This document shows, piece after piece, positions 3,464 through 47,129 of a DNA stretch of 47,148 bases; the stretch's first letter is position 1; each line of letters starts with the position of its first letter. The notes below the pieces were generated by a model. That model did not search any database. It was given only the letters and a program-made list of their open reading frames with translations, and was not told the origin of the DNA. The stretch is from Candidatus Poribacteria bacterium (GTDB lineage Bacteria; Poribacteria; WGA-4E; WGA-3G), in assembly GCA_009845545.1 (NCBI GenBank), contig VXZK01000303.1, positions 1-47,148 of the forward strand, in the 5' to 3' direction. The translations under genes were made by a program, and so were the position numbers.

Positions 3464-3513
3464 GAACATACCATCATATTTGAACTTGAAAAACTACTAA
3501 TACTGAAACTTGC

Positions 3514-4419
3514 TTACAAGAATACCGCCAATCGCTCCCACACGTCCTCTGAAACCGGTGTCGTCGCAGCGGCAAAATTCTGCTCTACCTCTGCCGCATT
3601 CTTAGAACCCGTCAAACTCATCGCAATCCTCGGTTGGCGGAAACAGAATTGAATGGCGAGGTTCAGGACGTTCAGGTTGTTTTCAGTTGCCCACTGATAG
3701 AGCTGATGTGCTTTTTCAGCGTCAGATGTGCTTAAGTGTGCACTGCTAGTTGACACATCTGGCTCGATGCCAGAGAGCAACCCCATTGCAATAGGACTCC
3801 CGTTAATAATACCAATATCGTTTTCGGCAGCGAAGGGTAACAACCATTCGTTTGCAGTTTGGCTCAGAAGCTTGTAATCCAAGTACGTTAGGATAACATC
3901 AACGACACCGGTTTCAATGGCAATTTTATGGAATTCGTGTTGCCGAACCCCAAGTCCGATAAACTTAATCAGTCCTTCCTCGCGCATCCGTTGAAGTTCA
4001 TCCAATGCACCGCCTTTCGCCACAACAGGGGCCATACTATCCGGATCATGCACTAAGCAGACATCAAGATAATCCGTACCCAACAGTCGCAGGCTATTTT
4101 CGACGCTTCGGCGCGTGCCTGCAGCACTAAAGTCGCCGCGCCATTCAGGGTGTGTGCCTGTTTTTGTAGCGAGATAAATCTTCTCCCGCCAACTTCTATC
4201 AGCGAGTGCAAGTCCTACCCGTCTTTCGCTCTCACCGTAGAGGGGGGCAGTGTCCAAATAATTGATTCCCAAATCAATCGCTCGGTGTACTGCCTCGACT
4301 GCTTCGTCGTCGCTAACATCGCCTCTGCCGACCCCCGCGCCTCCCATACCGAGACACGTGACTTCTAATTCCGTACGTCCTAACCGTCGCCTCGGCAACG
4401 GATTTGCTTGTATTGACAT
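3514..4419 (-). CDS. Aldo/keto reductase
   Basis: 301 aa. RRLGRTELEVTCLGMGG...AVHRAIDLGINYLDTAPLYGESERRVG is typical of the AKR family. Confidence 0.85.
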   Translation of the reverse strand: MSIQANPLPRRRLGRTELEVTCLGMGGAGVGRGDVSDDEAVEAVHRAIDLGINYLDTAPLYGESERRVGLALADRSWREKIYLATKTGTHPEWRGDFSAAGTRRSVENSLRLLGTDYLDVCLVHDPDSMAPVVAKGGALDELQRMREEGLIKFIGLGVRQHEFHKIAIETGVVDVILTYLDYKLLSQTANEWLLPFAAENDIGIINGSPIAMGLLSGIEPDVSTSSAHLSTSDAEKAHQLYQWATENNLNVLNLAIQFCFRQPRIAMSLTGSKNAAEVEQNFAAATTPVSEDVWERLAVFL

Positions 4420-4838: not shown

Positions 4839-5213
4839 TCATCCCGATGTGAACTCTCGGTGTAGATGTCCGCGACGGGCATCTGGAGGAATCACACTTA
4901 CCCACTGCACACCTTTAATCACGTCGTCGGGGATATGTCCATGCTCAACACCTTTCGGTGTGATGACCAAATCCCCAGGACCGATACGATACGATTCAGA
5001 CTGTCCATCCGCCGTTCGCAGCGTCACTGTTGTTGTGCCTTCGGTAAAATACCAATACTCATCGAAATCGTGATAATGAAGTTCAGTTGGATTGTCTTTA
5101 GAGACGGCGAAGGCACCAATCGTCGTCATATCTGGGGTGTCCAAGACTTTACCGAGTACTTCGCCGATGCGCTCCCCTTCACTCAGTCGAATAACGCAAA
5201 GATTCGTATCCAT
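4839..5213 (-). CDS. Cupin-domain protein
   Basis: 124 aa. HYHDFDEYWYF...GDLVITPKGVEHGH matches cupin motifs 1 and 2. Confidence 0.7.
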   Translation of the reverse strand: MDTNLCVIRLSEGERIGEVLGKVLDTPDMTTIGAFAVSKDNPTELHYHDFDEYWYFTEGTTTVTLRTADGQSESYRIGPGDLVITPKGVEHGHIPDDVIKGVQWVSVIPPDARRGHLHREFTSG

Positions 5214-5974
5214 TAGATGACTCCAATGTTTTTCAAGTGCTGCAGTGAATCTGCTACGCGTGCTTTGACACCAGCCTCATCAAGGTTTTCCCCTTCAACA
5301 CCCTCTAATTCCATAGTGAAAGGACCGTAGAAGCCAGCATCATTCAATGTCTGGAAGACCGCTTTAAAATCGACCACACCTTCACCGAGCGTTGGGAAAT
5401 GCCAGGTACGATAGCCGCCGTTTGTATCCTTAAGATGAACCGCACCGACGTGTGGAATAACTTTCTGAACTTCGGTGACAGCCGTCACATTATGGTTATA
5501 ATAATAGACGTTACCCGTGTCGAAGTTAACACAGATATTCGGATGGTTGACCGCTTTCATCGTTTCAAGCGCAATGTCACCGTTGTGTATCAAATCCGGG
5601 TGTGTTTCCAAGCACACTTTAATCCCCGCCGGTGCAGCGTTTTCCCCGATAGCACGGAGCCTGTCATAAACGGCGTTTCTGTCCGCCTCGTCAGCGTGGA
5701 CGCTGACAAAGATAACCTTCACACCCATCTTATCGGCAACCTCCAACGTCGGTTCGAAATCTGAGACAACCGTTTCGGACTGAACATCACAACGCCCTAA
5801 AAGGCTTGTAGCAGTAAGTCCGTGTGCTTTCAGTTCTGATTGGACTGCGTCAACAGACTCAGCCGAAGGCACACCGATTTCTACATTCGTTAGACCGATT
5901 TCCGCTAAGTGTGTATACGCACCCTCACGAAACTGTCGATAACTCCCTAAATTGCAAGCAATAATATTTTCCAT
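5213..5974 (-). CDS. Sugar phosphate isomerase/epimerase (xylose isomerase-like TIM barrel)
   Basis: 253 aa. VCLETHPD...NFDTGNVYYY...HLKD pattern. Its stop overlaps the cupin start (TAATG). Confidence 0.8.
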   Translation of the reverse strand: MENIIACNLGSYRQFREGAYTHLAEIGLTNVEIGVPSAESVDAVQSELKAHGLTATSLLGRCDVQSETVVSDFEPTLEVADKMGVKVIFVSVHADEADRNAVYDRLRAIGENAAPAGIKVCLETHPDLIHNGDIALETMKAVNHPNICVNFDTGNVYYYNHNVTAVTEVQKVIPHVGAVHLKDTNGGYRTWHFPTLGEGVVDFKAVFQTLNDAGFYGPFTMELEGVEGENLDEAGVKARVADSLQHLKNIGVI

Positions 5975-6022
5975 TTTTTCTCCTATTTTTTGTGAAATAA
6001 GACTTACGCAGGTTGTTCTTTT

Positions 6023-6344: not shown

Positions 6345-8741
6345 TTACTTCTGTATTAGCATCTTGCGTGTAGCCGTGAAATCACCAGCGGTCAGCGTAT
6401 AGAAATACAGACCACTTGCCACAGGTTCACCGAACGCGTTTTTACCATCCCAATACGCCGTACGACTGCGATTTTGGTACTTACCCGCAGCTTGATGCCC
6501 AAGCGTCAATGTCCGCACCAACGCACCGTTCATAGCGTAGATATGCAGTGTAACATCCGCACCCTTCGCCAAGTGATACGGTATCCACGTTTCAGGATTG
6601 AACGGATTGGGAAAGTTTGGCAAAAGGGCACTCTCTTTCGGTGTCAACGCTACGAGGAGTTGTTGTAAAAATCGGATACCGCGTGTGAATTCATATCCGT
6701 GAGATTCAGGTTTCAAGTGCTGAGCAGCGGATAGCCACTGTTTGACATCTGTAGCAGTGAGCATTTCTAAGGCTTGCAGATGTAAAGAAGGTGCGGAGGC
6801 ACTTGTTCCCAATGCTCCAGCGACCAAGACAAGATCAGCGATGTTGACGACACCATCACTGTTGACATCTGCAGCGTTTGATCCTGTCTGGCCGAGATTT
6901 GAAGCAACCAATACCAAATCGGCAATGTTAACAGTGCCATCACCGTTCACATCGCCTGTGAGTTTAGTGGGTTCAGTTATTTCAGCGTTTTCAATCTGAG
7001 GCGCAAACGTTTCACCTGTGCTGTTGGAGACAAGGACATCAGATAATGTCAAAGTAGATGCCTTCACTGCGATGACTTCAAAGGTGAGCGTAGCGAGGGT
7101 GCCGTCACCGTTGCTTTCGCCCGCAGTAGAGGCAGCGTTGAGTTTCACAAGATTCCCTTCCAAAATCGGAGGGACAAAAAATGCGCCATCAGGTAGATAA
7201 TCACTGTTACGACTTTCCACGTAACGGAAAGCAGTGTCGTCGAACCGCACGGTTGCTTGGTAACCTGCAACATTTTTACCGTTAGTAATTTTTATGGACA
7301 ACTTGAGCAGTTGACCAATATTGGGGGATGGCACACTCATGGGCAAGAGGCTTACCGTATCTGATCGATTTCCTGCATCGTTATCAGTATTCATATTCTT
7401 CATATTCATATTATAGAATAGTCTTGGATTGCCAAACACAAAGTGATCGCAAGCATTTCTTCCAAGATCATCGACTTCAATAGTAAGTCTTTCAGTGCCT
7501 TTAGGAATATCAAAATCAATACTCGTGTCCCTATTATTAACGCTTAGCGTTCCTGACTTGTAGATTTCTACGTCATCAGCGTAAACTATAACTTCAATGG
7601 ATACCAGACCAGCGCATGATGTCATGTCGAGGTATGAACTAAACTTTGTATAAACTTTATCAGAAATATCGTAGATAATACGACTTGGAGCATGTGAGTA
7701 CATCCAGTGATCCCAGCTATCCATATGAGGAGAATTTCTGTAATCGACATGCGGTTTATCAGATGTAACCCCATCTGGAGTTTTCTCCCATATGCCTCCT
7801 TCCCAGCCATCCCAGTCTTGAAGTCCGTTTATAGGTACTAAAGAATCAGGAGTATCGTAACTAAACGTAAGGGCAACTGAATTTTTATTGATCTCAGTAT
7901 CTGTAATATTTACAGCAACAGTGGAATTTATCGGAATTCCCATCTCTTCTGCTATAGCTGCAACAAATTTTTTATTTTCGATATTTACATTTCTGTACCA
8001 TTCCTGCATATACTCGGACATTACTGATGTTGAATTTGGCATCTGTCGCACAACATTCCATGCTTCAGGGTTTTCTTCAAATATATGCAAAAACTTATAT
8101 GACAACTGCGATACTCTTGTATAACTAAACGCTCCGCTATCGTGATCTCTTAGTTTTACTTCCCATTCTTCAAGCCAATCAGCACCTGATCCATCATACT
8201 GGACTTCTGGTCTACTTGTCTGCCATCTATGGTGATCTGCTAAAGTATGTCTGTAATCTCTCCAGTTATCGTATGGTGGGTCAGTTTCCCAAGTTTTACT
8301 CATTCTACGAAGAACCCATAGGTTAGCGAGTTCGCATATACCTTCAAGAAACCATCCATTAGGATTACCTTTGAAATCTTCAAAGTTATGCATTAGATGA
8401 CAGAATTCATGTCCAAACTGATAGGATAAATTAGCCCAATCTCTATCAGTGATATACAAACCTATTTTATATTCGTCTTCTTCACCGCCAAATGAATCTC
8501 TATAAAAAGCCTTTGGGTTGTTATTATTCCAGACTATAGTTAGTTTACCTTTAACTTTTAGATCGTTATCAAGGTGTTCTTGAAAGTGAAGTGCGACATT
8601 CTCGCATAGTCTTTTAATGTTAGAAACTTTGGCGTTTCCCCATCTGGCATCATCTTCAACTGTTATGATTAAATTTGCGAAGCTTATAGTAGGCAACAAC
8701 AATAATGCCAGTACCCAGAAAAAAACAATTCTTTTAAACAT
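6345..8741 (-). CDS. Secreted multidomain protein: HExxH metallopeptidase-like region, NPCBM-like module, cohesin-like domain, dockerin repeats, FlgD-Ig/T9SS-type C-terminal domain
   Basis: Start chosen at ATG 8741 (MFKRIVFFWVLALLLLPTISFA signal); the longer ORF to 8951 runs into the IS. HEFCH at 8397-8411. NPCBM-like ~7413-7721 (ends ...CDHFVFGNPRL). Cohesin-like ~6987-7343. Dockerin GDVNGDGTVNIADLV...DVNSDGVVNIADLV at ~6810-6956. C-terminus NFPNPFNPETWIPY...GLYFYTLTAGDFTATRKMLIQK. Confidence 0.75.
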   Translation of the reverse strand: MFKRIVFFWVLALLLLPTISFANLIITVEDDARWGNAKVSNIKRLCENVALHFQEHLDNDLKVKGKLTIVWNNNNPKAFYRDSFGGEEDEYKIGLYITDRDWANLSYQFGHEFCHLMHNFEDFKGNPNGWFLEGICELANLWVLRRMSKTWETDPPYDNWRDYRHTLADHHRWQTSRPEVQYDGSGADWLEEWEVKLRDHDSGAFSYTRVSQLSYKFLHIFEENPEAWNVVRQMPNSTSVMSEYMQEWYRNVNIENKKFVAAIAEEMGIPINSTVAVNITDTEINKNSVALTFSYDTPDSLVPINGLQDWDGWEGGIWEKTPDGVTSDKPHVDYRNSPHMDSWDHWMYSHAPSRIIYDISDKVYTKFSSYLDMTSCAGLVSIEVIVYADDVEIYKSGTLSVNNRDTSIDFDIPKGTERLTIEVDDLGRNACDHFVFGNPRLFYNMNMKNMNTDNDAGNRSDTVSLLPMSVPSPNIGQLLKLSIKITNGKNVAGYQATVRFDDTAFRYVESRNSDYLPDGAFFVPPILEGNLVKLNAASTAGESNGDGTLATLTFEVIAVKASTLTLSDVLVSNSTGETFAPQIENAEITEPTKLTGDVNGDGTVNIADLVLVASNLGQTGSNAADVNSDGVVNIADLVLVAGALGTSASAPSLHLQALEMLTATDVKQWLSAAQHLKPESHGYEFTRGIRFLQQLLVALTPKESALLPNFPNPFNPETWIPYHLAKGADVTLHIYAMNGALVRTLTLGHQAAGKYQNRSRTAYWDGKNAFGEPVASGLYFYTLTAGDFTATRKMLIQK

Positions 8742-8760
8742 TTTATTCTTCCTGTTTATT

Positions 8761-9785
8761 TCTAAACGTGAGTTTGATAAATATTTGAAAGTTTTTGAAT
8801 AAAGAGAACCCTTTTGGTATAATGAAACAATCTCTAACTTCCAAAAGGAGTTCTCTGATGAGTATTCTAACACTTTTCTGTAATATTGACGACTTTTTTC
8901 TGCTTCACGAGAAATGGAAGGCAACACATTGTCTACCGGAGACGACAACACCGGAAATACGTGGACGCCCTCGGCAACTGCATCCGAGCGAAGTGATGAC
9001 GATCCTTATTGCTTTCCACCAAAGCAACTATCGGACGTTTAAACACTTTTACAACAAACATGTTTGTGTCTATTGGTGTGCGGAGTTTCCGCATTTAGTG
9101 AGTTATTCTCGGTTCGTTCAACTCAAGAAAGAGGTGTTGATGCTCTTGACGCTTTATCTTCATGCTCAGCTCGGTGAATGTAGCGGTATCTCCTTCGTGG
9201 ATTCGACCCGTTTGCGGGTTTGCGATAATAAGCGGATCTCCTCACATCGCGTCTTCGCTGAACATGCCGGACGCTCGAAGACTTCAATGGGATGGTTCTA
9301 TGGTTTTAAACTCCACCTCATCATTAATGAGAGAGGGGATCTCTTAGGTTTTCAAGTGTCTTCGGGGAATACGGATGATCGTCAACCTCTCTGGGAGTTG
9401 TCGCCGGATAGCCTGTTCGGCCCCCTTTATGGCGATAAAGGGTATATCTCGAAAGACCTCCGTACGTTTCTCAAGGAACAAGGTATCAACTTGTGCTATA
9501 AAGTCCGTAAGAACATGAAACCGCTGGAGTTATCCGTTTCCGATGAGGTGCTATTGAAGAAACGGTCGATTATAGAATCAGTGATAAAGGCGTTGAAAAC
9601 GCAGACGGTGCTTGAACACAGTCGTCATAGAAGTTTCGCGAACTTTCAAGTCAACCTTATTTCTGCGTTGATTGCGTATCAACTGCTGGAGAGCAAGCCC
9701 TCGGCGAACATATTGGAACTTCAAGGAAGCAACGACTTACCCGTGCTTTTCTAACGGATAAACTTTTTTCAAACTCACGTTTCTA
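8761..9785 (+). mobile_element. IS982-family insertion sequence (~1.0 kb)
   Basis: Terminal inverted repeats: AAACGTGAGTTTGA at 8764-8777 and its exact reverse complement at 9769-9782. They enclose a single transposase ORF. No clear target-site duplication found. Confidence 0.75.
8858..9754 (+). CDS. IS982-family DDE transposase
   Basis: ATG at 8858 follows AAAAGGAG. MSILTLFCNIDDFF..., FVDSTRLRVCDNKR, SMGWFYGFKLHLIINERG, YGDKGYIS and RSIIESVIKALK match IS982 transposase signatures as I recall them. Confidence 0.85.
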   Translation: MSILTLFCNIDDFFLLHEKWKATHCLPETTTPEIRGRPRQLHPSEVMTILIAFHQSNYRTFKHFYNKHVCVYWCAEFPHLVSYSRFVQLKKEVLMLLTLYLHAQLGECSGISFVDSTRLRVCDNKRISSHRVFAEHAGRSKTSMGWFYGFKLHLIINERGDLLGFQVSSGNTDDRQPLWELSPDSLFGPLYGDKGYISKDLRTFLKEQGINLCYKVRKNMKPLELSVSDEVLLKKRSIIESVIKALKTQTVLEHSRHRSFANFQVNLISALIAYQLLESKPSANILELQGSNDLPVLF

Positions 9786-9809: not shown

Positions 9810-10817
9810 TCAAGGAATCTTCCGTAGCACCGTATTGCTCAATAGAATCTCAATCCCTAACAGTAGCACTGCGGGTATCAAGAAATATGTTGCCAACTCT
9901 TTGTGGGCAACGGTGTTGACGGTCTTAAATTCTGTCTTTTCAAAACGGTCGATTTCCGCATAGATTTGCTTCAGTGATTGTGTGTCTATGGCGCGAAAGT
10001 AACGTCCTCCTGTCGTTTGTGCAATCTGCTTTAGGGTATCCTCGTCGAGATAGGTGAGAACCTCACGGTATCTTTTACCGAAGGTCATGTCTGCATAGGG
10101 GATACGTGCACCCCCCTCTTTCCCCATACCAATGGTATAAACCTTGATCCCGGAGGATTCTGCGAGAGACGCTGCTGCCCCTGGGTTAATGCTGCCTGCG
10201 GTGTTTTCACCATCGGTCAGGAGGATAACGATCTTCGTTTTCGATTGTGAGACGCGTAACCGATGTGTGGCAGTCGCAAGTGCATCACCGATAGCAGTGC
10301 CATCCTCCAGTTGTCCAAGTTTTACATCGTTGAGCAGTTCTACCAGTACTGCGTAATCTAATGTGAGGGGACAGAGCGTGAAACTTTCGCCAGCAAAAAC
10401 AACTAAACCGATGCGATCGTTTTCGCGATGTGCCAAAAAATCGTTGATGACCAATTTAGCGGTTTCGATACGATTTGCTCCCTCAAAATCCTCTGCCCGC
10501 ATGCTCTCCGAAATATCAAGTACTAAAAGGATATCAATTCCCTTCGCTAATTGATGTTCACGGCTTTGAGAGAGTTGCGGACGGGCGAGCGTAACGATAA
10601 GTAGTGCGAGGACAATGAATCTCAAAATCTTCAACATCGGCAGTGCTTTCACTGAGAAGGTTTGTCGCATCTTCTGAACGCCGGCTGCAAAGCCGTGGTT
10701 GAAGTCAGAAAAACGCACGACTGGGGTGATTGTCCGTTTGTACAACCATCCAGAAGCAATAAACAACAGAGGGATTATGATAAGCAAAATTAAAAAAAAG
10801 GGCGATGCTAATTGCAT
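9810..10817 (-). CDS. VWA-domain protein, BatA-like
   Basis: Two N-terminal TM segments, then LLVLDISESMRAEDF...NRIETAKLVINDFL...DRIGLVVFAGESFTLCPLTLDY...VILLTDGENTAG (MIDAS motif and BatA architecture). Confidence 0.85.
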   Translation of the reverse strand: MQLASPFFLILLIIIPLLFIASGWLYKRTITPVVRFSDFNHGFAAGVQKMRQTFSVKALPMLKILRFIVLALLIVTLARPQLSQSREHQLAKGIDILLVLDISESMRAEDFEGANRIETAKLVINDFLAHRENDRIGLVVFAGESFTLCPLTLDYAVLVELLNDVKLGQLEDGTAIGDALATATHRLRVSQSKTKIVILLTDGENTAGSINPGAAASLAESSGIKVYTIGMGKEGGARIPYADMTFGKRYREVLTYLDEDTLKQIAQTTGGRYFRAIDTQSLKQIYAEIDRFEKTEFKTVNTVAHKELATYFLIPAVLLLGIEILLSNTVLRKIP

Positions 10818-10822
10818 GCGAG

Positions 10823-11980
10823 TTACATCCTTTCTGACCGCGAACTCCACTCATTACCGGGGAGCACGGATGTATTTCTCCGCCGGTCTTGTGGCCTCAT
10901 CATGTTGATGCCACTCAGTAAGCAGATCCCAATACCAAGGGTGTTGACAACGAGAAACGTTACCCAATCAATGTATGGCAGCGCTGTCGCCATAAAGTAG
11001 AGGATATAACCGAAAATTACTGCAAGTGGTTTCAATCGACCTGAAAAGAGAGTGCCGCCGAGTGTCAGGAAAATCGCTGCTTTACCACAGATGGCTAACG
11101 GCAGTAAAATGGATAGTCCCAACAACATGAGCGGAACGCCGATAATTGACAGTGTTAGCAGCACAACAATTAGCGGTATGACAACTAACATCAGGGCACT
11201 AAATAGTATACTCCCGACCGGTTGATATATTAACATTTCACTGACTGCATTTATCGGTCTTGGAAATATTGTCACCACTAACAGATACATAAGGAGAAGA
11301 AGAACGAACTTAACGAGCATGAATCGGAGGTCCATCTCTTTGCGGATTTCCCAGAGAGCCCGCGGATGCATCACGAGTTTCACTGCCGCAGGAATCATCT
11401 GCCAGCGATTGCTTACCTGAAGATTCGCTACTTTCTCTATGTTTCCTGTAACTTCCCCGCTGATGAGATGAAGCGTTCCGTTTACTTGTGCGCTTGATGC
11501 AAGTTCGACGTTTCCACCGAGTACCAACACATTTCCGGTGACGCGCCCTTCTAACCTCGCGTTGCCAGCAATTATAACGAGGCTTGTTAATACCTCATCC
11601 GCTGCTAATTCATAGTCGTTAACAATTTTGAATATCCGCCGCGTTTTTTCCCACTGGTCCCCTCTCTCTGCAGCGGTTTCACTCGGAGCTTCAGTTTGCT
11701 GACTTAGCGTGTTAGGAGCCGCTTCCGAAGTTGGTGCCGCGCCTGCGTGTTCGGTGCTATCTTCTCGCGTTGGACGCCTTGACTCGTTTCTCGTTTGCAA
11801 ATCTGCTTCTTGCGCTGTTAAGCCCTGCGCAAGAAAAGTACCGTTTGCGACTTTGTCGTGTCTGAAGTTGGATTGTGGATGCCGTTCATCACTCTGTTGA
11901 TTTCCGGACGCTACAGGCTGTCCAAACAAGGACAGCACACCAAAACTGAAAAATAAAAATATAACTGCTATTTCCTTCAT
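10823..11980 (-). CDS. Membrane protein with bactofilin-like repeat region
   Basis: Signal-like N-terminus. Repeat region IIAGNARLEGRVTGNVLVLGGNVELASSAQVNGTLHLISGEVTGNIE is followed by ~5-6 hydrophobic helices. Ends 5 bp upstream of the batA-like start. Confidence 0.5.
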   Translation of the reverse strand: MKEIAVIFLFFSFGVLSLFGQPVASGNQQSDERHPQSNFRHDKVANGTFLAQGLTAQEADLQTRNESRRPTREDSTEHAGAAPTSEAAPNTLSQQTEAPSETAAERGDQWEKTRRIFKIVNDYELAADEVLTSLVIIAGNARLEGRVTGNVLVLGGNVELASSAQVNGTLHLISGEVTGNIEKVANLQVSNRWQMIPAAVKLVMHPRALWEIRKEMDLRFMLVKFVLLLLMYLLVVTIFPRPINAVSEMLIYQPVGSILFSALMLVVIPLIVVLLTLSIIGVPLMLLGLSILLPLAICGKAAIFLTLGGTLFSGRLKPLAVIFGYILYFMATALPYIDWVTFLVVNTLGIGICLLSGINMMRPQDRRRNTSVLPGNEWSSRSERM

Positions 11981-16278: not shown

Positions 16279-16653
16279 GTGGATATGCAAAGGATAATTG
16301 TCTGGGGGACTGTCTTAGGCGTAATCATCCTTGTAGGCATTGGAATAATCTATGCCTTGCGCGCGCCGCGCACAGCCCCAAAAACCTATCCAGCGGATAA
16401 GGGACCTAACTTTATTGATGTTACTGCCTACCCTGCGAAGATGCAGGAGGCTTACGAACTCTTCACCAACAAGTGTAGTCGATGCCACACTGTTGCACGT
16501 CCCATTAACTCTACCTTCATGCCGGAAGAGTGGCGAAAGTATGTCTATAAAATGATGCGGAAGCCGGGTTCAGGGCTTACGCCGAAAACCGCTGAAGAAA
16601 TAATTAGATTCCTCATTTACGATGCACGGCATAGGGAGCGAAAAACAAAATGA
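16279..16653 (+). CDS. Small membrane-anchored c-type haem-binding protein (single CXXCH)
   Basis: N-terminal TM helix. FTNKCSRCHTVARP...EEWRKYVYKMMRKPGSGLTPKTAEEIIRFLIYD resembles the haem-binding domain type C-x-x-CH...W...RM...L...E..I..YL. Start uncertain (GTG 16279 or ATG 16285). Confidence 0.55.
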   Translation: MDMQRIIVWGTVLGVIILVGIGIIYALRAPRTAPKTYPADKGPNFIDVTAYPAKMQEAYELFTNKCSRCHTVARPINSTFMPEEWRKYVYKMMRKPGSGLTPKTAEEIIRFLIYDARHRERKTK

Positions 16654-17780
16654 TTGTTACGCGTAAAATTCACGCTATAGTAACACGCTTGATGTTGGCG
16701 ATATTATTTTCTCTAATAGGCATGCAAATCGGATTCACTGAAGAGGATAATATGAAAAAAAACGATTTTCAGGTTTCAGTAGACGCACAGCGTATTGAAT
16801 TTACCAAGCCCGCTATTTTCAAAGACGGCGCATGGTTGGTGCCTTTGGAGCGGTTCGCCAAACACCTCGAATTGAAGGTAGAATACCCGGAAGGCACGGA
16901 AATGGTGGTACTTTGCGACGGTGTGGAATCAGAACTCTGTGTACCACTCCAATTCCAAGATGGAAAGGCGGGGGCTGTGGACATTGAGGGTGTAACTTAT
17001 GTGCAACCGGCGTCCCTCGCGAAAACCTTCGGCTTTGAAATTTACAAAGCATCAGCGAACACGCTGGAGATTATCCAACCGGTATATCTCGCTCCCGAAT
17101 TCACGCTCCCTGATTTAGAGGCGAACCCAAGACATTTAAAAGAGTTTCGCGGGAAAAAAACGTTTCTCTATGTTTGGGGCTCATGGTGAGGGTGTCGTGG
17201 ACAACTGCCGGGCTGGCAGGAATTTTACGCTAAACACAACGAAGCGTTAAACTTTATCTCAATCGCACTGGATGCCCAAGGCGCATCTGTTGTACGTCCT
17301 TGGCATGATGCTGCGAATGCCGATTTTGTTACACTTATTGATTCACAGAATATTTTTGGCACCCGTTATAACCTCAAAGCGATTCCTTACGGGATCATGA
17401 TTGACGAAGCTGGACGGCTGGTGAAAGTACCTTTCAACGTTAATGTCAAAAATCAAAAGCACCTTGTAATGCTCGAAAAGTGGTTGTCGGATCCTGACTA
17501 TAATGCGATGCTGCTTCACGAAATGAAACCCTCAAGCGAGCCGCTTGTAAAAACGAATGCTGAAGCAGCTGCACGCTTTCAACTCGGGCTCGTCTTATTG
17601 GAAGGCGGGAAAAAGAAGGAAGCGATAGCGGAATGGCGAAAGGCACTCGCGTTAGATCCGCAAAACTGGATTATCCATAAGCAAATTTGGGCAGTTGAGC
17701 ACCCAGACAAATTCTATAAAGGTAGTGTTGATTACGCTTGGCAGAAGACGCAGTTAGAGTCGGAGAAAAGCCAACGGTAG
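16650..17780 (+). CDS. ResA/TlpA-like thiol:disulfide oxidoreductase, candidate selenoprotein (in-frame UGA at 17187-17189), with TPR-like C-terminus
   Basis: ORF-track fragments 16650-17189 and 17397-17780 share one frame with no other stop between them. Read-through gives FLYVWGSW-U-GCRGQLPGWQEFY at the position of WCxxC in ResA/TlpA. Thioredoxin-fold features continue downstream (AIPYGIMIDEAGRLV). Start overlaps the upstream stop (ATGA). Confidence 0.7.
17205..17219 (+). promoter_or_regulatory. Candidate bacterial SECIS hairpin
   Basis: CUGCC-GGGCU-GGCAG begins 15 nt after the UGA at 17187-17189. Confidence 0.4.
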
Positions 17781-18086
17781 GCACAGGGGCTATCTGACGG
17801 AGCACAGATCCTTTTTCAACCGAACTCTATTTTCAACACTTTGTCTAAAAGAATAACACGTGCTCAATATAGGTCGGAACGTTTTGCTACTTTAGTATAA
17901 AATTTACTATGCTGTCTGTAGTCTTAGATGCCGCGTATGCGAATATCCTAACATATCGATGTCTGAGAAACCATTTTTATTAAGAATCGGCGTTGATACT
18001 TTATTCCAGGTCGGTTCCGCTTCTTAGAGATACGCGGATCGCAGAGAGCCGATAGAATCTTATCGATAATGTAGGTGGAGGAAATA

Positions 18087-21000
18087 ATGAATACAAGAGA
18101 AGGTTACGCAGAATTACAAACAAAAATTTTAGATGCCAGACGCGTTTGGAAACGTAGTATTTTTTGGGCTGGATTCGCTATCGTTCTGACGGGCATAATT
18201 GCCGTATTTGTGGGTGAGGCTATCATTGATTGGTTAATGCCCTTGCCAAGTTTTGTGCGAATTGCTTTGTTAACAGCCGGGGTCGGCGTGACGGGGTACC
18301 TGCTCTATAAGTATCTTCTTCAACCGCTCCGAGCGGCACTCACGCTCCGTGATATCGCACTCAACGTTGAGCAGAATCACCCTGACCTTGAAGATAGATT
18401 AGTAAGTGCAATTGAATTCGGCAACCGCGAGCCAACGGATCCAATTGAAGCGCACATGCTCCAACGCCTGATTCAAGATACGACGCAGCGCGTAAAAAGT
18501 ATTGATTTTAAAGCAACAGTCGATCATAGCCGGACCCGCAAGCATGTCGGCATCGCGGCTTTAGTTGTTGTCGGCTGCTCTGTACTCGCCCTCATATTTC
18601 CAACAGAACTCCATACCAGTCTTCTCCGCGTATTGGTCCCTTGGGAGAAAACTGAACCCGTTTTGACGACGAAACTAACTGTTGAACCCGGAAGTGTACG
18701 TATCCTTCGCGGTAAAAGCCTACCTATTCACGTCACTGTCACCGGAAAATCTGCTGAGAAGGTTGTTTTGGCTTATGAGAATATAGAGAACCGAGAAACC
18801 ACCGCCTCCGAATCGGAAACAACCCAGCAACAAATTAATATGTTACAAAACCCAGACGATAAACGTGGGTTTGCTTATGAAATTTTTAACATTGACGCAG
18901 ATATCGAATACTACGTTGTAGCGAACGAGACCACTTCGGAACGCTATACTGTTGAAGTCTTTGAGATGCCGAAGGTAACGGAAATTTCCGTGGCTTACAC
19001 TTATCCAGGCTACACAGGCCTTAAACCCGTCGTGCAAACTGGGACGGGGGACATTCAAGCCGTCGTTGGAACACAGGCGGAAATAAAACTCACGACCAAT
19101 AAAGCCATTCAAACTGCAACATTTGCTCTGAAGATGGATGTTAAGCCTGAAAAAGACGAAACTCAGGAACCTGCTTCAACCCAGATGGTTATCTCCGACG
19201 GGAACATCCTTACAACAACTGTAGATGTTATCGCGGACGGGACATATACCGTTGAACTTCTGGGCATTGATGGTTTCAATAACGAGATACCCATTGAATA
19301 CGCCATAAAAGCCATCCCGGACGCTGGACCGGAGGTTGTGATAAAGGAACCTGGGCGCGATATCAAAACGACAAAGTTGGGTGAAGTGGAAATCATCGCT
19401 GAAGCCACAGACGATTATGGCATCGCAGCACTAAAACTTATGTATCGCATCGGGTCTGACGAACTACACGAGTTAACCTTGGAAACCTCCACGCCTGATG
19501 CTATTGATACCGGGCAACGCCGCGTAGCAGACGGTAGTTATACATTCTACCTTGAGGAATTTGATGTCGAACCGGGCGATATTATCTCCTACTACGCACA
19601 CGCTGTCGATAATAACACGCTCACTGGGCCCAGCGAAGCGAGTAGCGATATTTATTTTATTGAAATCCGCCCGTTTAATGAAGATTTCCAAGAGATGGAG
19701 GCAGAACAGGGACCCCCGATGCCGAATCCGCTTTTAGAGATACTCACCTCCCAGAAGCAGATTATTCGAGAAACAGCGAAACACATTAGCGCGAAACCGT
19801 CATCAGTTACCGAGGAGTATCGGAGTGCCGTTAAGAAAACCGGGGACAAGCAAGATAAATTGAAGGATAAGACGCAGCGGCTCGCAGATGAGTTTAGCAT
19901 GGCGATGCAAGGCGAATCGCCAATCACGCCCGAGATTCTGATGAACTTGGAGGATGCAATACAAAGAATGCGTGAAGCAACCGATAGCCTGAACGCTGTC
20001 CAACCTGTTGCAGCGATACCCGCGGAACAAGAGGCACTTGAACTATTGATAAAAGTTAATCTTGAACTTCCGACCATACTGATGCAGATGCGGAACAGTA
20101 ATCCCCAACTTGCTGAGAATCTTGAACTCGAAATGGAGGAGCTGCAAAGCGAACTTGAGGAACAGCAGAACGAGCTTGATATGGAGATGCAGGAAGAGAC
20201 GCAGGAGATGTTAGATCAGGCACGTCAAATGTTGGCAGAGCAACAGCAGCTGAGTCAACAGAGCCAGCAGTTAGGACGTGAAAACGAACCATCTCCGAGC
20301 GATATGCAACAGAACAGTCAGCAACAAGGGCAGCTGTCCCAGCAGGCGCAGCAGATGGCACAGCAGCTCAGTACCATGCAGCAGAATGCGCAAGGATCCC
20401 AAGGCCAACGCTTGGATCAAGCCGGTCAAGCGATGCAACAGGCTGGCGAACAGATGGATCAAGCCTCACAAGGCATGCAACAACAAGAACCGCAACTTAG
20501 TGCCGCTAAAGGGCAAAAAGCAGAGGAAAGGCTTCAGGAAGCCATTGAACAGTTGGAAAAGGTCGCATCGGAATTCACCGATGCCGCGCTCGCTAATGCT
20601 GCAGAACAGGTCCAGCAGTTGATAGATGAACAATCCGGTGTCCAACAGGAGACACAAGAACTCAGGAACCGCTCTCAGCAGTTAGAAATGCGACCCGAAG
20701 ATTTCCGAAAGGCATCTGAACTTGCTAACGAACAGCGAGAACTTCAACAGGATCTCGAAGCACTTGAGAATACACTGGAGAACTTGCCGGAGCAGCTCCG
20801 TGAGGAGAACCCAGAGGCAGCCCGAAATGTAACGGATGCTACCAGACGGCTCACTGAAGAGCAGACTGCCGGGGATATGTCAACCGCACAACGCGCCCTG
20901 CAATGGCGTAGTTTCCGCGCCGCTGAACTGAATCAACAAGAGGTCGTGGAGACCCTCAGGCAGGTACAGGGAGATCTGCAACAGGCGCAAGCCAATATGG

Positions 21001-21572
21001 CAAACACCGAAGAAGAACAGCTCGAAGCCGCACTTCAGCAGCTTCAACAATCGCGGGAACAGATGGAGGACATCCAACGCGAACTTCAAACTATGGACGG
21101 GCAAGAGCAGACGGAAGAACAACAACGCCGTCAGCAACAACTCGCTGAGCAACAGCAACAGATTCAGGAGCGCATGCAACAGGCGCAACAAGCCATGCAA
21201 GATGGGCAGGAAGGACAACAACCCGGTCAACAGCCCGGACAACAACCTGGGCAGGAAGGACAGCAGCCCGGGCAGGCTGAAGGGGACGGTGAGAACCAAG
21301 AAGCACGCGCCGGGGGGCGGGAATCCGGACGTGAAATTAACGAACTCTGGCTCGATCTGCTGAATACTATGGACTATCGCCCTGGAAATCGCTCAAATCC
21401 GTTCCCTAACTATGAATTCGTTATTCGGGACTTGACGAAATTGGAAGCCGCACTTGAAGAGCGACTCAACACACTTCAGGAGAAAAAACGACTCTTCCAA
21501 GTCGCCAAAGAGGAGGTCCCGCCTGAGTACCGACGGCTCGTTGATGACTACTACGAGTCTTTGTCACAGTAG
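18087..21572 (+). CDS. Large membrane-anchored, Q/E-rich coiled-coil protein (DUF4175-like)
   Basis: ATG at 18087 follows GGAGG. Two N-terminal TM helices. Central ...DIYFIEIRPF... motif, then a very long Q/E-rich low-complexity region including GQQPGQQPGQQPGQEGQQPGQ. C-terminus EVPPEYRRLVDDYYESLSQ is typical of this family as I recall. Confidence 0.6.
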   Translation: MNTREGYAELQTKILDARRVWKRSIFWAGFAIVLTGIIAVFVGEAIIDWLMPLPSFVRIALLTAGVGVTGYLLYKYLLQPLRAALTLRDIALNVEQNHPDLEDRLVSAIEFGNREPTDPIEAHMLQRLIQDTTQRVKSIDFKATVDHSRTRKHVGIAALVVVGCSVLALIFPTELHTSLLRVLVPWEKTEPVLTTKLTVEPGSVRILRGKSLPIHVTVTGKSAEKVVLAYENIENRETTASESETTQQQINMLQNPDDKRGFAYEIFNIDADIEYYVVANETTSERYTVEVFEMPKVTEISVAYTYPGYTGLKPVVQTGTGDIQAVVGTQAEIKLTTNKAIQTATFALKMDVKPEKDETQEPASTQMVISDGNILTTTVDVIADGTYTVELLGIDGFNNEIPIEYAIKAIPDAGPEVVIKEPGRDIKTTKLGEVEIIAEATDDYGIAALKLMYRIGSDELHELTLETSTPDAIDTGQRRVADGSYTFYLEEFDVEPGDIISYYAHAVDNNTLTGPSEASSDIYFIEIRPFNEDFQEMEAEQGPPMPNPLLEILTSQKQIIRETAKHISAKPSSVTEEYRSAVKKTGDKQDKLKDKTQRLADEFSMAMQGESPITPEILMNLEDAIQRMREATDSLNAVQPVAAIPAEQEALELLIKVNLELPTILMQMRNSNPQLAENLELEMEELQSELEEQQNELDMEMQEETQEMLDQARQMLAEQQQLSQQSQQLGRENEPSPSDMQQNSQQQGQLSQQAQQMAQQLSTMQQNAQGSQGQRLDQAGQAMQQAGEQMDQASQGMQQQEPQLSAAKGQKAEERLQEAIEQLEKVASEFTDAALANAAEQVQQLIDEQSGVQQETQELRNRSQQLEMRPEDFRKASELANEQRELQQDLEALENTLENLPEQLREENPEAARNVTDATRRLTEEQTAGDMSTAQRALQWRSFRAAELNQQEVVETLRQVQGDLQQAQANMANTEEEQLEAALQQLQQSREQMEDIQRELQTMDGQEQTEEQQRRQQQLAEQQQQIQERMQQAQQAMQDGQEGQQPGQQPGQQPGQEGQQPGQAEGDGENQEARAGGRESGREINELWLDLLNTMDYRPGNRSNPFPNYEFVIRDLTKLEAALEERLNTLQEKKRLFQVAKEEVPPEYRRLVDDYYESLSQ

Positions 21573-46118: not shown

Positions 46119-47129
46119 TTAATTTGATGTTTCCAAAGTTTGGAAGAAGTTAACTAAGTCTGTTCCGTGTGTACTGGCGTTGACCGCTTTATCAATTTCT
46201 ACAATCTTCCCTGTTTTATCAATGATGATAGCGGACCGTTGGATTGCGCCATCGGAGGCATCTGTTGCACCGTACAAAAGCGCGAGATTGCGTCCAGCGT
46301 CTACCAAAAGTGGGAAGTTCAACTGGTTTTCTTCAGAAAATTTCTGACGCGAATCTGCGTCATTGTGGGTGATCCCGAAAATCTGGGCATCGTATTTTGC
46401 CAAACGACTCGACTCATCACGGAGCGAGCAAACTTGCGCCGTTCAGCCACGCCCGAAGTCGCGCGGGTAAAACGATAGGACGACGTTCTTTTTCTCGATT
46501 AACTCGCTGAGCTGATAACTTTCGCCTGTACTATCCGTTGCGATGAAATCTGGAGCAGGTTGTCCAACCTCTACCTTCGGTAACACTTCCTTAAGCAGAG
46601 CGACAACATCTTCACCGTGCGTTTTGACATTGACTTCTGTGTCGATCGCGCGGATGTATCCTGCTTTATCAATAATGAAGGTCGTCCGTTTTGAAGCATT
46701 AAAACGCTCAATGATCCCACTGTACTGTTTGCTTACCTCAAATTCGGTATCCGCTAACAGCGAAAACCCAAATTTTTGTTCTGATCTAAACCGTTTATGT
46801 GAATCGACATCGTCAACACTGACACCGAAAAGAACACTTCCGGTGGCTTCTATCTCGCTCAAATTATCCCGGAGCGAGCAAAGTTCAGCTGTTCAGCCAC
46901 CGGTAAAATCTTTTGGATAAAATGCGAGGACGACACTCTTCTGCCCGATATAGTCACTGAGACTCCGCTCAACGCCTTCTTCATCTTTCAATGTAAAGTC
47001 GGGGGCAATCATTCCGACTTTGAGTGTATCTGGAGTTGTCACTGCCTTCTCCCCTGAAGCTACTGCAATCAAAATGGCTGTCGTGAGGATAACAGCCAAG
47101 ATGCTTACATTAAACTTTGTTTGAAACAT
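46119..47129 (-). CDS. Secreted tandem two-domain Bcp-type peroxiredoxin, candidate selenoprotein with two in-frame UGA codons
   Basis: ORF-track fragments 46893-47129, 46443-46862 and 46119-46403 share one frame, separated only by TGA at 46893-46895 and 46443-46445. Read-through gives [19 protein letters not shown] and [19 protein letters not shown], compared with E. coli Bcp [19 protein letters not shown] (recalled). N-terminal signal peptide; GGAGG RBS. Confidence 0.75.
46408..46428 (-). promoter_or_regulatory. Candidate bacterial SECIS hairpin (second UGA)
   Basis: On the mRNA: UGA, 14 nt, then CUCGCUC-CGUGAU-GAG-U-CGAG (7 bp with one bulged U, 6-nt loop containing GU). Confidence 0.45.
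46854..46878 (-). promoter_or_regulatory. Candidate bacterial SECIS hairpin (first UGA)
   Basis: On the mRNA: UGA, 14 nt, then CUCGCUC-CGGGAUAAUUU-GAGCGAG (7-bp perfect stem). Confidence 0.45.

Follow-up and report, generated by a model that had tools for sequence, protein, structure and literature searches.

The contig VXZK01000303.1 of a Candidatus Poribacteria bacterium (assembly GCA_009845545.1), analysed over positions 1 to 47,148 (this whole stretch is called the window below), carries a gene for a ResA/TlpA-like thiol oxidoreductase, or redoxin, in which a TGA codon stands where related proteins have the first cysteine of the active site. Does this codon end a truncated protein, or is it translated, and if so, as which amino acid? 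From comparative sequence analysis we conclude that in sponge-symbiont Poribacteria the in-frame UGA of a periplasmic thiol oxidoreductase of the ResA/TlpA type almost certainly encodes selenocysteine (Sec). The interval 16650-17780 is very probably one gene for an exported three-domain protein of this type, with Sec180 as the nucleophile and Cys182 as the resolving residue, located next to a lineage-specific cytochrome gene. The UGA and a hairpin that follows it are under selection.

The UGA codon and the active site around it

The frame from 16650 to 17780 contains a sole internal stop, the TGA at 17187-17189 (in the context GGC TCA TGG TGA GGG TGT CGT GGA CAA CTG CCG GGC TGG CAG), and ends with the TAG at 17778-17780, giving a product of 376 residues with Sec at position 180. 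The read-through translation is ...KKTFLYVWGSW-U-GCRGQLPGWQEFY..., with VWGSW-U-G-C-RGQLPGWQ as the active-site stretch. The ATG at 16650 overlaps (ATGA) the TGA stop (16651-16653) of an open reading frame (ORF) at 16279-16653, which encodes the small cytochrome with its CXXCH motif. A preliminary description of this DNA, made from the letters alone, had pointed to the in-frame TGA, the frame open to 17780, the CXXCH ORF, the ATGA overlap and the hairpin, and all of them are found at the positions it gave.

A scan of one genome per species yielded 79 orthologous loci, all from Candidatus Poribacteria or from metagenome-assembled genomes (MAGs), with 53-91% identity; together with a second copy in one of these loci (L074) and the window itself, there are 81 copies. 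The homologous codon is TGA in all 81, within the motif W-(G/A)-S-W-U-(G/A)-C, and the residue between U and C is Gly in 62 and Ala in 18 out of 80 distinct sequences. Past the TGA the frame remains open for another 193-203 codons in every complete copy (∼195 conserved residues). Synonymous change is abundant at the conserved residues 3' of the TGA in the codon alignment, which argues for purifying selection on this region as protein.

If the TGA were a true stop, the locus would encode a 179-residue N-terminal protein and a 127-residue ORF starting from the ATG at 17397; alternatively, the TGA would reflect a pseudogene or a faulty assembly. Public collections (including NCBI) do hold the gene as exactly these two fragments, as separate products of 179/145 and 127 residues, and no sel genes lie within the window. 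However, the same TGA and the same continuity of the frame recur in 81 assemblies, some of them complete long-read chromosomes; the 69 codons from the TGA to the ATG at 17397 are conserved as protein and hold half of the thioredoxin fold; and the Cys-form homologues are single continuous proteins. The ATG at 17397 is not a conserved start, because the Met that it encodes (in YGIMIDE) corresponds to Trp (VWIDE) in most homologues of the family. We consider a true stop extremely unlikely. An assembly error, an indel that restores a CxxC spacing and a pseudogene are ruled out as such, since 81 independent sequences, many from complete long-read chromosomes, share the TGA and its spacing; the preliminary description had named the first two, together with an independent downstream ORF, as ways in which its reading could fail, and the comparison speaks strongly against all three.

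The UGA could also be translated as something other than Sec: as Cys by a SelC*-type tRNA(ReC), which likewise uses a Sec insertion sequence (SECIS), or as Trp or Gly under an alternative genetic code. Systems with tRNA(ReC) read SECIS-dependent UGA as Cys in some bacteria (PMC13582414), and the Joint Genome Institute (JGI) gene call for one homologue (P0002; L080 619-1659) renders the TGA as Trp. But TGA is a normal terminator in the same loci: most copies of the adjacent cytochrome gene end with it, as does the redoxin gene of several loci. A reassigned code (code 4 or 25) therefore does not explain the read-through, and an alternative genetic code can be ruled out. In addition, the P0002 call also runs through the gene's own TGA stop into junk; the site is that of a catalytic Cys, which is typical of Cys/Sec exchange; and the family is curated as a selenoprotein family (NF041054, see below). 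Decoding as a residue other than Sec is in our judgement very unlikely. The P0002 gene call itself looks as if an alternative code was applied to the L080 contig.

The protein has a central thioredoxin-fold domain: Pfam families Redoxin (47.7 bits) and AhpC-TSA (46.4 bits) match residues 148-260 above their thresholds, and a sequence search among solved structures returns ResA, pneumococcal Etrx2, StoA, DsbE and TlpA. A peroxiredoxin identity, prompted by the AhpC-TSA match, was rejected: the WxSW-C context and the ResA/TlpA structure matches indicate the TlpA class, and not PxxxTxxC. In the HMMER alignments to ResA (4nmu, motif WGTWCKPC) and others U is aligned on the first Cys, and each printed structure alignment has a one-residue gap between Gly181 and Cys182 (swcg.crgqlp versus TWCKPCEKEMP). 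U thus takes the place of the nucleophilic Cys in a centre with CxC spacing, confirming what the preliminary description had derived from the letters, namely a UGA in place of the N-terminal active-site Cys and a one-residue U-x-C spacing. It had also likened the N-terminal domain weakly to the Cu-amine-oxidase type and the C-terminal tail to TPR repeats. Both likenesses are recovered by Pfam at about the strength it suggested: Cu_amine_oxidN1 matches residues 44-89 with 22.9 bits (under the gathering score of 24.2), and TPR_2 matches residues 306-339 with 27.0 bits, exactly at threshold.

In an AlphaFold model of the Cys-form homologue P0003 (pLDDT 88.5, pTM 0.84) the same three parts appear as a beta-rich, a thioredoxin-fold and a helical domain, and the middle one has target TM-scores of ∼0.8 against ResA, TlpA and DsbE structures. 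Homologues P0003-P0017 share this layout, with a conserved Cys pair in the N-terminal domain, W-A-S-W-C-G-C ahead of (D/Q)LPGWQ, and a C-terminal domain made of helices.

The window protein shares with Bacillus subtilis ResA, CcmG/DsbE and Bradyrhizobium TlpA the common fold, the W-x-(S/T)-W-C context and the cis-Pro region (AIPYG in the window protein), and probably also the extracytoplasmic location, as implied by its N-terminal anchor. Those proteins, however, are CxxC reductases, whereas the window protein is one residue shorter between the redox residues and would have Sec for the nucleophilic Cys; it also has extra N- and C-terminal domains, and its gene lies outside ccm/res/ccs or sco/cox operons. 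The NCBIfam ResA model (NF002854) gives 63.8 against a cut-off of 170, and the protein has neither the CxxC site nor the cytochrome-maturation linkage of the ResA/CcmG class. CGC peptides and CGC thioredoxin variants have been studied as mimics of protein disulfide isomerase: the one-residue spacing makes a strained, relatively oxidising ring, and CxC centres, as known from peptides, surpass CxxC centres in both strain and oxidising power. Those CXC centres are engineered disulfides, whereas the motif of the window type is natural, widespread and often Se-S. Exported via its N-terminal signal or anchor, the redoxin would use Sec180 to attack a substrate disulfide or an oxidised sulfur species, and Cys182 would then resolve the adduct, leaving a strained Se-S ring of the CxC type.

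The hairpin downstream of the UGA

The hairpin, CUGCC-GGGCU-GGCAG at 17205-17219, starts 15 nt past the UGA. Across the 79 complete orthologues, the codon alignment has ∼130 columns in which a conserved residue is encoded by degenerate codons, and only two of them show no synonymous change at all: Leu186 (CTG, 79/79) and Gln190 (CAG, 79/79). Each of the two makes up the outer half of one stem arm, although the rest of the redoxin gene mostly uses other codons for Leu and Gln. Numbered from the U of UGA, the pairs in the RNAalifold consensus are C19-G33, U20-A32, G21-C31, C22-G30 and C23-G29; the single stem change within Poribacteria is C22 to U (via Pro to Ser), which still allows a G.U pair. 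The loop reads N-G-G-N-U; its N1 is able to pair with U5 in 75 out of 80 distinct sequences.

Published constraints for bacterial SECIS elements (bSECIS; PMC13188914) are an upper stem of at least 4 bp, an apical loop of 3-9 nt with G in the first two loop positions, then G or U, a distance of 16-37 nt from UGA to loop, and a minimum free energy (MFE) of at most -7.5 kcal/mol. The hairpin agrees with them: it has a stem of 5-6 bp and a loop N-G-G-N-U (G-G-N if N1 and N5 are paired) beginning 20-21 nt past the UGA, and the MFE is -12.5 kcal/mol for the 46 nt past the UGA (the 16-nt core by itself gives -7.2). The TGA and the same hairpin at the same distance are also found in four Sec-form relatives from unrelated metagenome/MAG contigs: UUGCC-CGGGU-GGCAG in L080, CUGCC-CGUGU-GGCAG in L086 and L088, and UUGCC-CGGGU-GGCAA in L087, the last with a compensatory change from C-G to U-A (UUG...CAA). 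In a 22-sequence alignment all 110 pair cells (110/110) are standard pairs, with one C-G to U-A change. The hairpin that the preliminary description had singled out for SECIS prediction behaves as a SECIS, by the bSECIS rules, the fixed Leu186 and Gln190 codons, the consensus fold and the recurrence in four relatives. By the mechanism we propose, SelB with Sec-tRNA(Sec) would bind this hairpin, and Sec would be inserted at the UGA.

Several observations weigh against a Sec codon with its own SECIS in a member of the NF041054 family. First, the observed covariation score of the 22-sequence alignment is matched by 55 out of 500 shuffles; with so little variation in the stem, covariation by itself is weak evidence, and the case rests on the synonymous-site suppression instead. 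Second, the stability of the hairpin region is ordinary in a single-sequence thermodynamic test (z = -0.92). As this is not significant, stability alone is not counted as evidence. Third, the hairpin-forming codons are also present in two out of three Cys-form homologues examined (L082 and L084), so the LPGWQ peptide and codon bias could account for part of the stem conservation. Fourth, the score of the protein against NF041054 is only 159.4 bits, under the curated cut-off of 300. Fifth, there is no selA, selB, selC, selD or tRNA-Sec within the 47-kb window, where searches with Rfam (at gathering thresholds) and ARAGORN found nothing.

The Cys-form (TGC) genes with hairpin codons encode P0008 (L082 ∼6502-6550) and P0004 (L084 ∼6487-6535), and have the codons UUG/CUG CCG GGN UGG CAG. 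It may be that LPGWQ is inherently SECIS-competent, or that these codons are relics of Sec ancestors. If the LPGWQ peptide by itself encodes a SECIS-competent hairpin, this may pre-adapt the family to repeated switching between Cys and Sec.

A second gene in the window bears on the use of Sec in this genome. Its single frame, 47129-46119 on the minus strand, codes for two BCP/PrxQ-type peroxiredoxin domains in tandem behind a signal peptide, with a TGA at the peroxidatic Cys position of both (46895-46893 and 46445-46443, minus strand) and a 7-bp hairpin 3' of the first TGA. The tandem peroxiredoxin matches the NCBIfam model 'thioredoxin-dependent thiol peroxidase' in two stretches (175.7 bits, cut-off 140). 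This gene (46119-47129) is likely to encode a fusion peroxiredoxin with two predicted Sec residues, and its two catalytic-site TGAs lend indirect support to the Sec reading of the redoxin, as an independent sign of Sec use in this genome. Poribacteria have been listed among the phyla with Sec-containing group 4 hydrogenases, and SelA and SelB have been reported to be enriched in sponge-symbiont bins. The selenoproteome of Poribacteria would thus gain one clear selenoprotein, plus the tandem Sec-peroxiredoxin of the same window.

Table 1. Coordinates of the features of the redoxin locus within the window
Feature	Position	Strand	Basis or remark
Small, membrane-anchored single-haem c-type cytochrome gene	16279..16653	+	124 residues from GTG 16279 (122 in public gene calls); N-terminal transmembrane helix; CSRCH at 16474-16488
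Predicted selenoprotein gene, complete	16650..17780	+	Signal/anchor, N-terminal beta-rich domain, ResA/TlpA-like thioredoxin-fold domain, C-terminal helical/TPR-like domain
Putative N-terminal hydrophobic signal peptide or membrane anchor (MIVTRKIHAIVTRLMLAILFSLIGMQIGFT)	16650..16739	+	Read directly from the translation
Cys pair of the N-terminal domain, Cys89 and Cys97 (LCDGVESELCVPL)	16914..16940	+	Invariant in 79/79 orthologues; GLCxxDxCVP motif kept across family homologues
ResA/TlpA-like thioredoxin-fold (Redoxin) domain, residues 148-260, split by the Sec codon	17091..17429	+	Pfam and PDB sequence matches
UGA, predicted Sec180, at the position of the nucleophilic N-terminal Cys of CxxC	17187..17189	+	TGA in 81/81 orthologues; aligns to Cys in Cys-form homologues and ResA
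Cys182 (TGT), predicted resolving Cys, with Gly181 alone between Sec and Cys182	17193..17195	+	U-x-C centre
Predicted SECIS upper hairpin (stem CUGCC/GGCAG, apical loop GGGCU), on the Leu-Pro-Gly-Trp-Gln codons	17205..17219	+	Synonymous-site suppression; RNAalifold consensus
Possible lower stem around the upper hairpin (∼GUCGUGG with UUUUACG)	17195..17229	+	Weak; single-sequence MFE folds only, absent from the alignment consensus
C-terminal helical/TPR-like region with the family motif DPxNWxxHKQxW	17547..17717	+	TPR_2 match; aligns with the helical C-terminal domain of family homologues

Family membership and mis-annotation

The best NCBIfam model for the protein is NF041054 ('WAxxUGC_long, ResA-like WAxxUGC motif-containing protein', an equivalog; E 1.4e-46), so that the curated ResA-like 'UGC' family, which the preliminary description had suspected, does exist. 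The best stretch aligns residues 93-271 to profile positions 28-208 of 354. With 159 bits against a cut-off of 300 the window protein is a divergent relative of NF041054; the Cys-form homologue P0003 likewise falls under the cut-off (280.3 bits). The 'long' architecture of the family is found in full, as the alignment covers all three regions: the N-terminal Cys-pair domain, W-x-S-W-U/C-G-C followed by LPGWQ, and the helical C-terminal domain with (N/D)W..(H/R)(K/R)Q, with C89, W179, C180 (U), C182, L186, W189, Q190 and P337 conserved. In place of the family motif W-A-x-x-U-G-C the window has W-G-S-W-U-G-C, with U and C in register with the family; WGSW is found in 80 out of 81 copies of the Poribacteria set, and WASW in L075 only. 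The window protein also has a shorter C-terminal tail, and the N-domain Cys spacing is C-x7-C in most Poribacteria, not C-x4-C as in NF041054. In the most divergent loci, L075 and L079, the N-domain Cys pair is C-x4-C, as in the non-Poribacteria relatives.

The preliminary description had presented the U-x-C centre as unusual and perhaps functionally distinct, which overstates its novelty. A UGC family was reported in 2008 from the GOS selenoproteome as 'Prx-like (UGC-containing)' (pfam00578, motif UGC, 46 Sec and 855 Cys sequences; PMC2398784), and the UGC selenoprotein family is also listed in a 2026 review (PMC13188914). MDE0950781.1 is the published representative of the family. The window protein has what defines the family in the literature (a UGC-containing TlpA disulfide reductase, or Prx-like protein): a TlpA/AhpC-TSA-type thioredoxin fold, an in-frame UGA giving U-G-C with many CGC homologues, and a SECIS right after the UGA. 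About a quarter of the Poribacteria proteins differ from it in having U-A-C instead of U-G-C. On this sequence evidence the window protein belongs to a known Sec/Cys family, as a divergent member that had not been annotated before; it reveals neither a new kind of redox centre nor a new recoding mechanism. In the literature searched, the term 'WAxxUGC' and a description of the Sec-redoxin in Poribacteria were not found. The family is known there just as a table row, without domain architecture, SECIS details or gene neighbourhood; what the locus adds is a well-supported SECIS.

A profile search of 1.84 billion representative proteins gave 503 matches at E <=1e-30, and the best 150 of these 503 were classified. 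This is the tabulation of active-site motifs that the preliminary description had proposed: besides the uniform TGA of the orthologues, the wider family has both CxC and CxxC forms. Among the best 150, 69 are full-length CxC proteins (61 CGC; the rest CRC, CSC, CEC, CLC, CTC and CAC) and 20 are canonical CxxC proteins. Another 30 are C-terminal fragments of ∼200-230 residues whose first residues are exactly (L)P(G/V)WQ (P0186, P0209, P0211-P0226 and others). The other 31 fall outside these patterns, and many of them are shorter fragments beginning just 3' of the motif.

Three of the LP(G/V)WQ fragments were traced to their DNA, and all three are the downstream halves of TGA-containing genes (loci L086, L087 and L088), which suggests that Sec forms are common in the family and are routinely mis-called as truncated ORFs. 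A word-indexed search with the full read-through query missed Poribacteria fragment ORFs that are present by exact look-up, so that its homologue counts are too low for split selenoproteins. The annotation of the window gene, split into two fragment ORFs, is thus corrected. Truncated Sec forms of the same kind seem to make up about a fifth of the best representatives of the family.

Two other family members deserve mention. The Myxococcus protein P0007 has a real TGC at the Sec site and is a CGC form, and NCBI gives it the WAxxUGC family name. P0001 is atypical, and this is attributed to a noisy long-read assembly because the neighbouring genes on its contig are frameshifted.

The adjacent cytochrome gene and the neighbourhood

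In 77 out of 79 Poribacteria loci the redoxin gene is preceded, on its own strand, by the gene for a homologue of the cytochrome (16279-16653; 62-96% identity), and a motif scan finds the ATGA stop/start overlap in most copies; the pair is thus conserved in related genomes, as the preliminary description had asked. The cytochrome is missing from L075 and L079, the two most divergent orthologue loci. Outside Poribacteria no adjacent small cytochrome was found in the family members examined, and no consistent partner was seen around these homologues (an AraC regulator, DinB_2, a CCP_MauG ∼2 kb off, and Caa3_CtaG nearby). The pairing is therefore clade-specific, and the redoxin does not generally need the cytochrome. 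In L068 the cytochrome (∼3502-3819) is separated by ∼1.1 kb from the redoxin start at 4932.

The cytochrome has weak matches to haem-binding families: PF09098 (22.0 bits), Cytochrome_CBB3 (18.1 bits), and NCBIfam QH_alpha and SorB. It has 254 database homologues; the source names shown for these all read 'hypothetical protein [Candidatus Poribacteria bacterium]'. The cytochrome is most likely a redox partner or client of the redoxin, while a role as its dedicated substrate would be only plausible. The last step of the proposed mechanism would accordingly read either way, as redox exchange of the exported redoxin with the cytochrome, or as action on it.

As a client, the cytochrome would present its CSRCH motif to a co-translated, dedicated ResA/CcmG-like apocytochrome reductase. 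The fold of the redoxin is nearest to ResA, DsbE and TlpA, and the directly upstream, mostly overlapping position of the cytochrome gene in 77/79 loci fits such a role. But L075 and L079 have the Sec-redoxin without the cytochrome; the family members examined in other phyla have no small cytochrome gene beside them; a CxC centre, being more oxidising and strained than CxxC, is a poor fit to a reductase; and there are no ccm, resBC or ccs genes near the redoxin locus. We find a dedicated apocytochrome reductase doubtful. That the redoxin does not need the cytochrome in general weakens this idea and makes an electron-transfer partnership at least as likely.

In such a partnership the haem c would give electrons to, or take them from, the Se-S centre, and would link periplasmic thiol, peroxide or sulfur redox reactions to the respiratory chain. 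The stop/start overlap suggests roughly 1:1 co-production of the two proteins, both have N-terminal anchors, and the cytochrome is weakly similar to electron-transfer subunits (SorB, the QH-AmDH haem domain and cbb3 subunit III). The existence of the redoxin family without the cytochrome is also as expected of a lineage-specific add-on partner. However, coupling of a one-electron haem to a two-electron Se-S centre is without close precedent among TlpA-like proteins, and we put this forward as a tentative possibility. Its most specific form, a dedicated periplasmic module in which the Sec-Cys redoxin and the monohaem cytochrome c exchange electrons directly between haem and selenenylsulfide (e.g. 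a thiol/sulfur-compound oxidase or a peroxidase on the respiratory chain), is unlikely; if true, it would be a new way to recycle a TlpA-like protein. The conserved cytochrome c partner gene could guide a first functional test of a natural U-x-C/C-x-C centre.

The flanking genes for a transketolase, a DUF4175 protein and PPK2 show conserved synteny, without an evident functional link to the pair. The DUF4175 protein (1165 residues; 18075-21572, plus strand) has a long Gln/Glu-rich coiled region and is syntenic downstream in 45 out of 79 loci, and a BatA/VWA-domain protein (9810-10850, minus strand) also flanks the locus; neither has an evident link to the redoxin. The pair itself can be duplicated: the Poribacteria locus L074 has two cytochrome and Sec-redoxin pairs (∼4926-6008 and ∼8648-9730, ∼3.7 kb apart), both with the TGA and the ATGA overlap.

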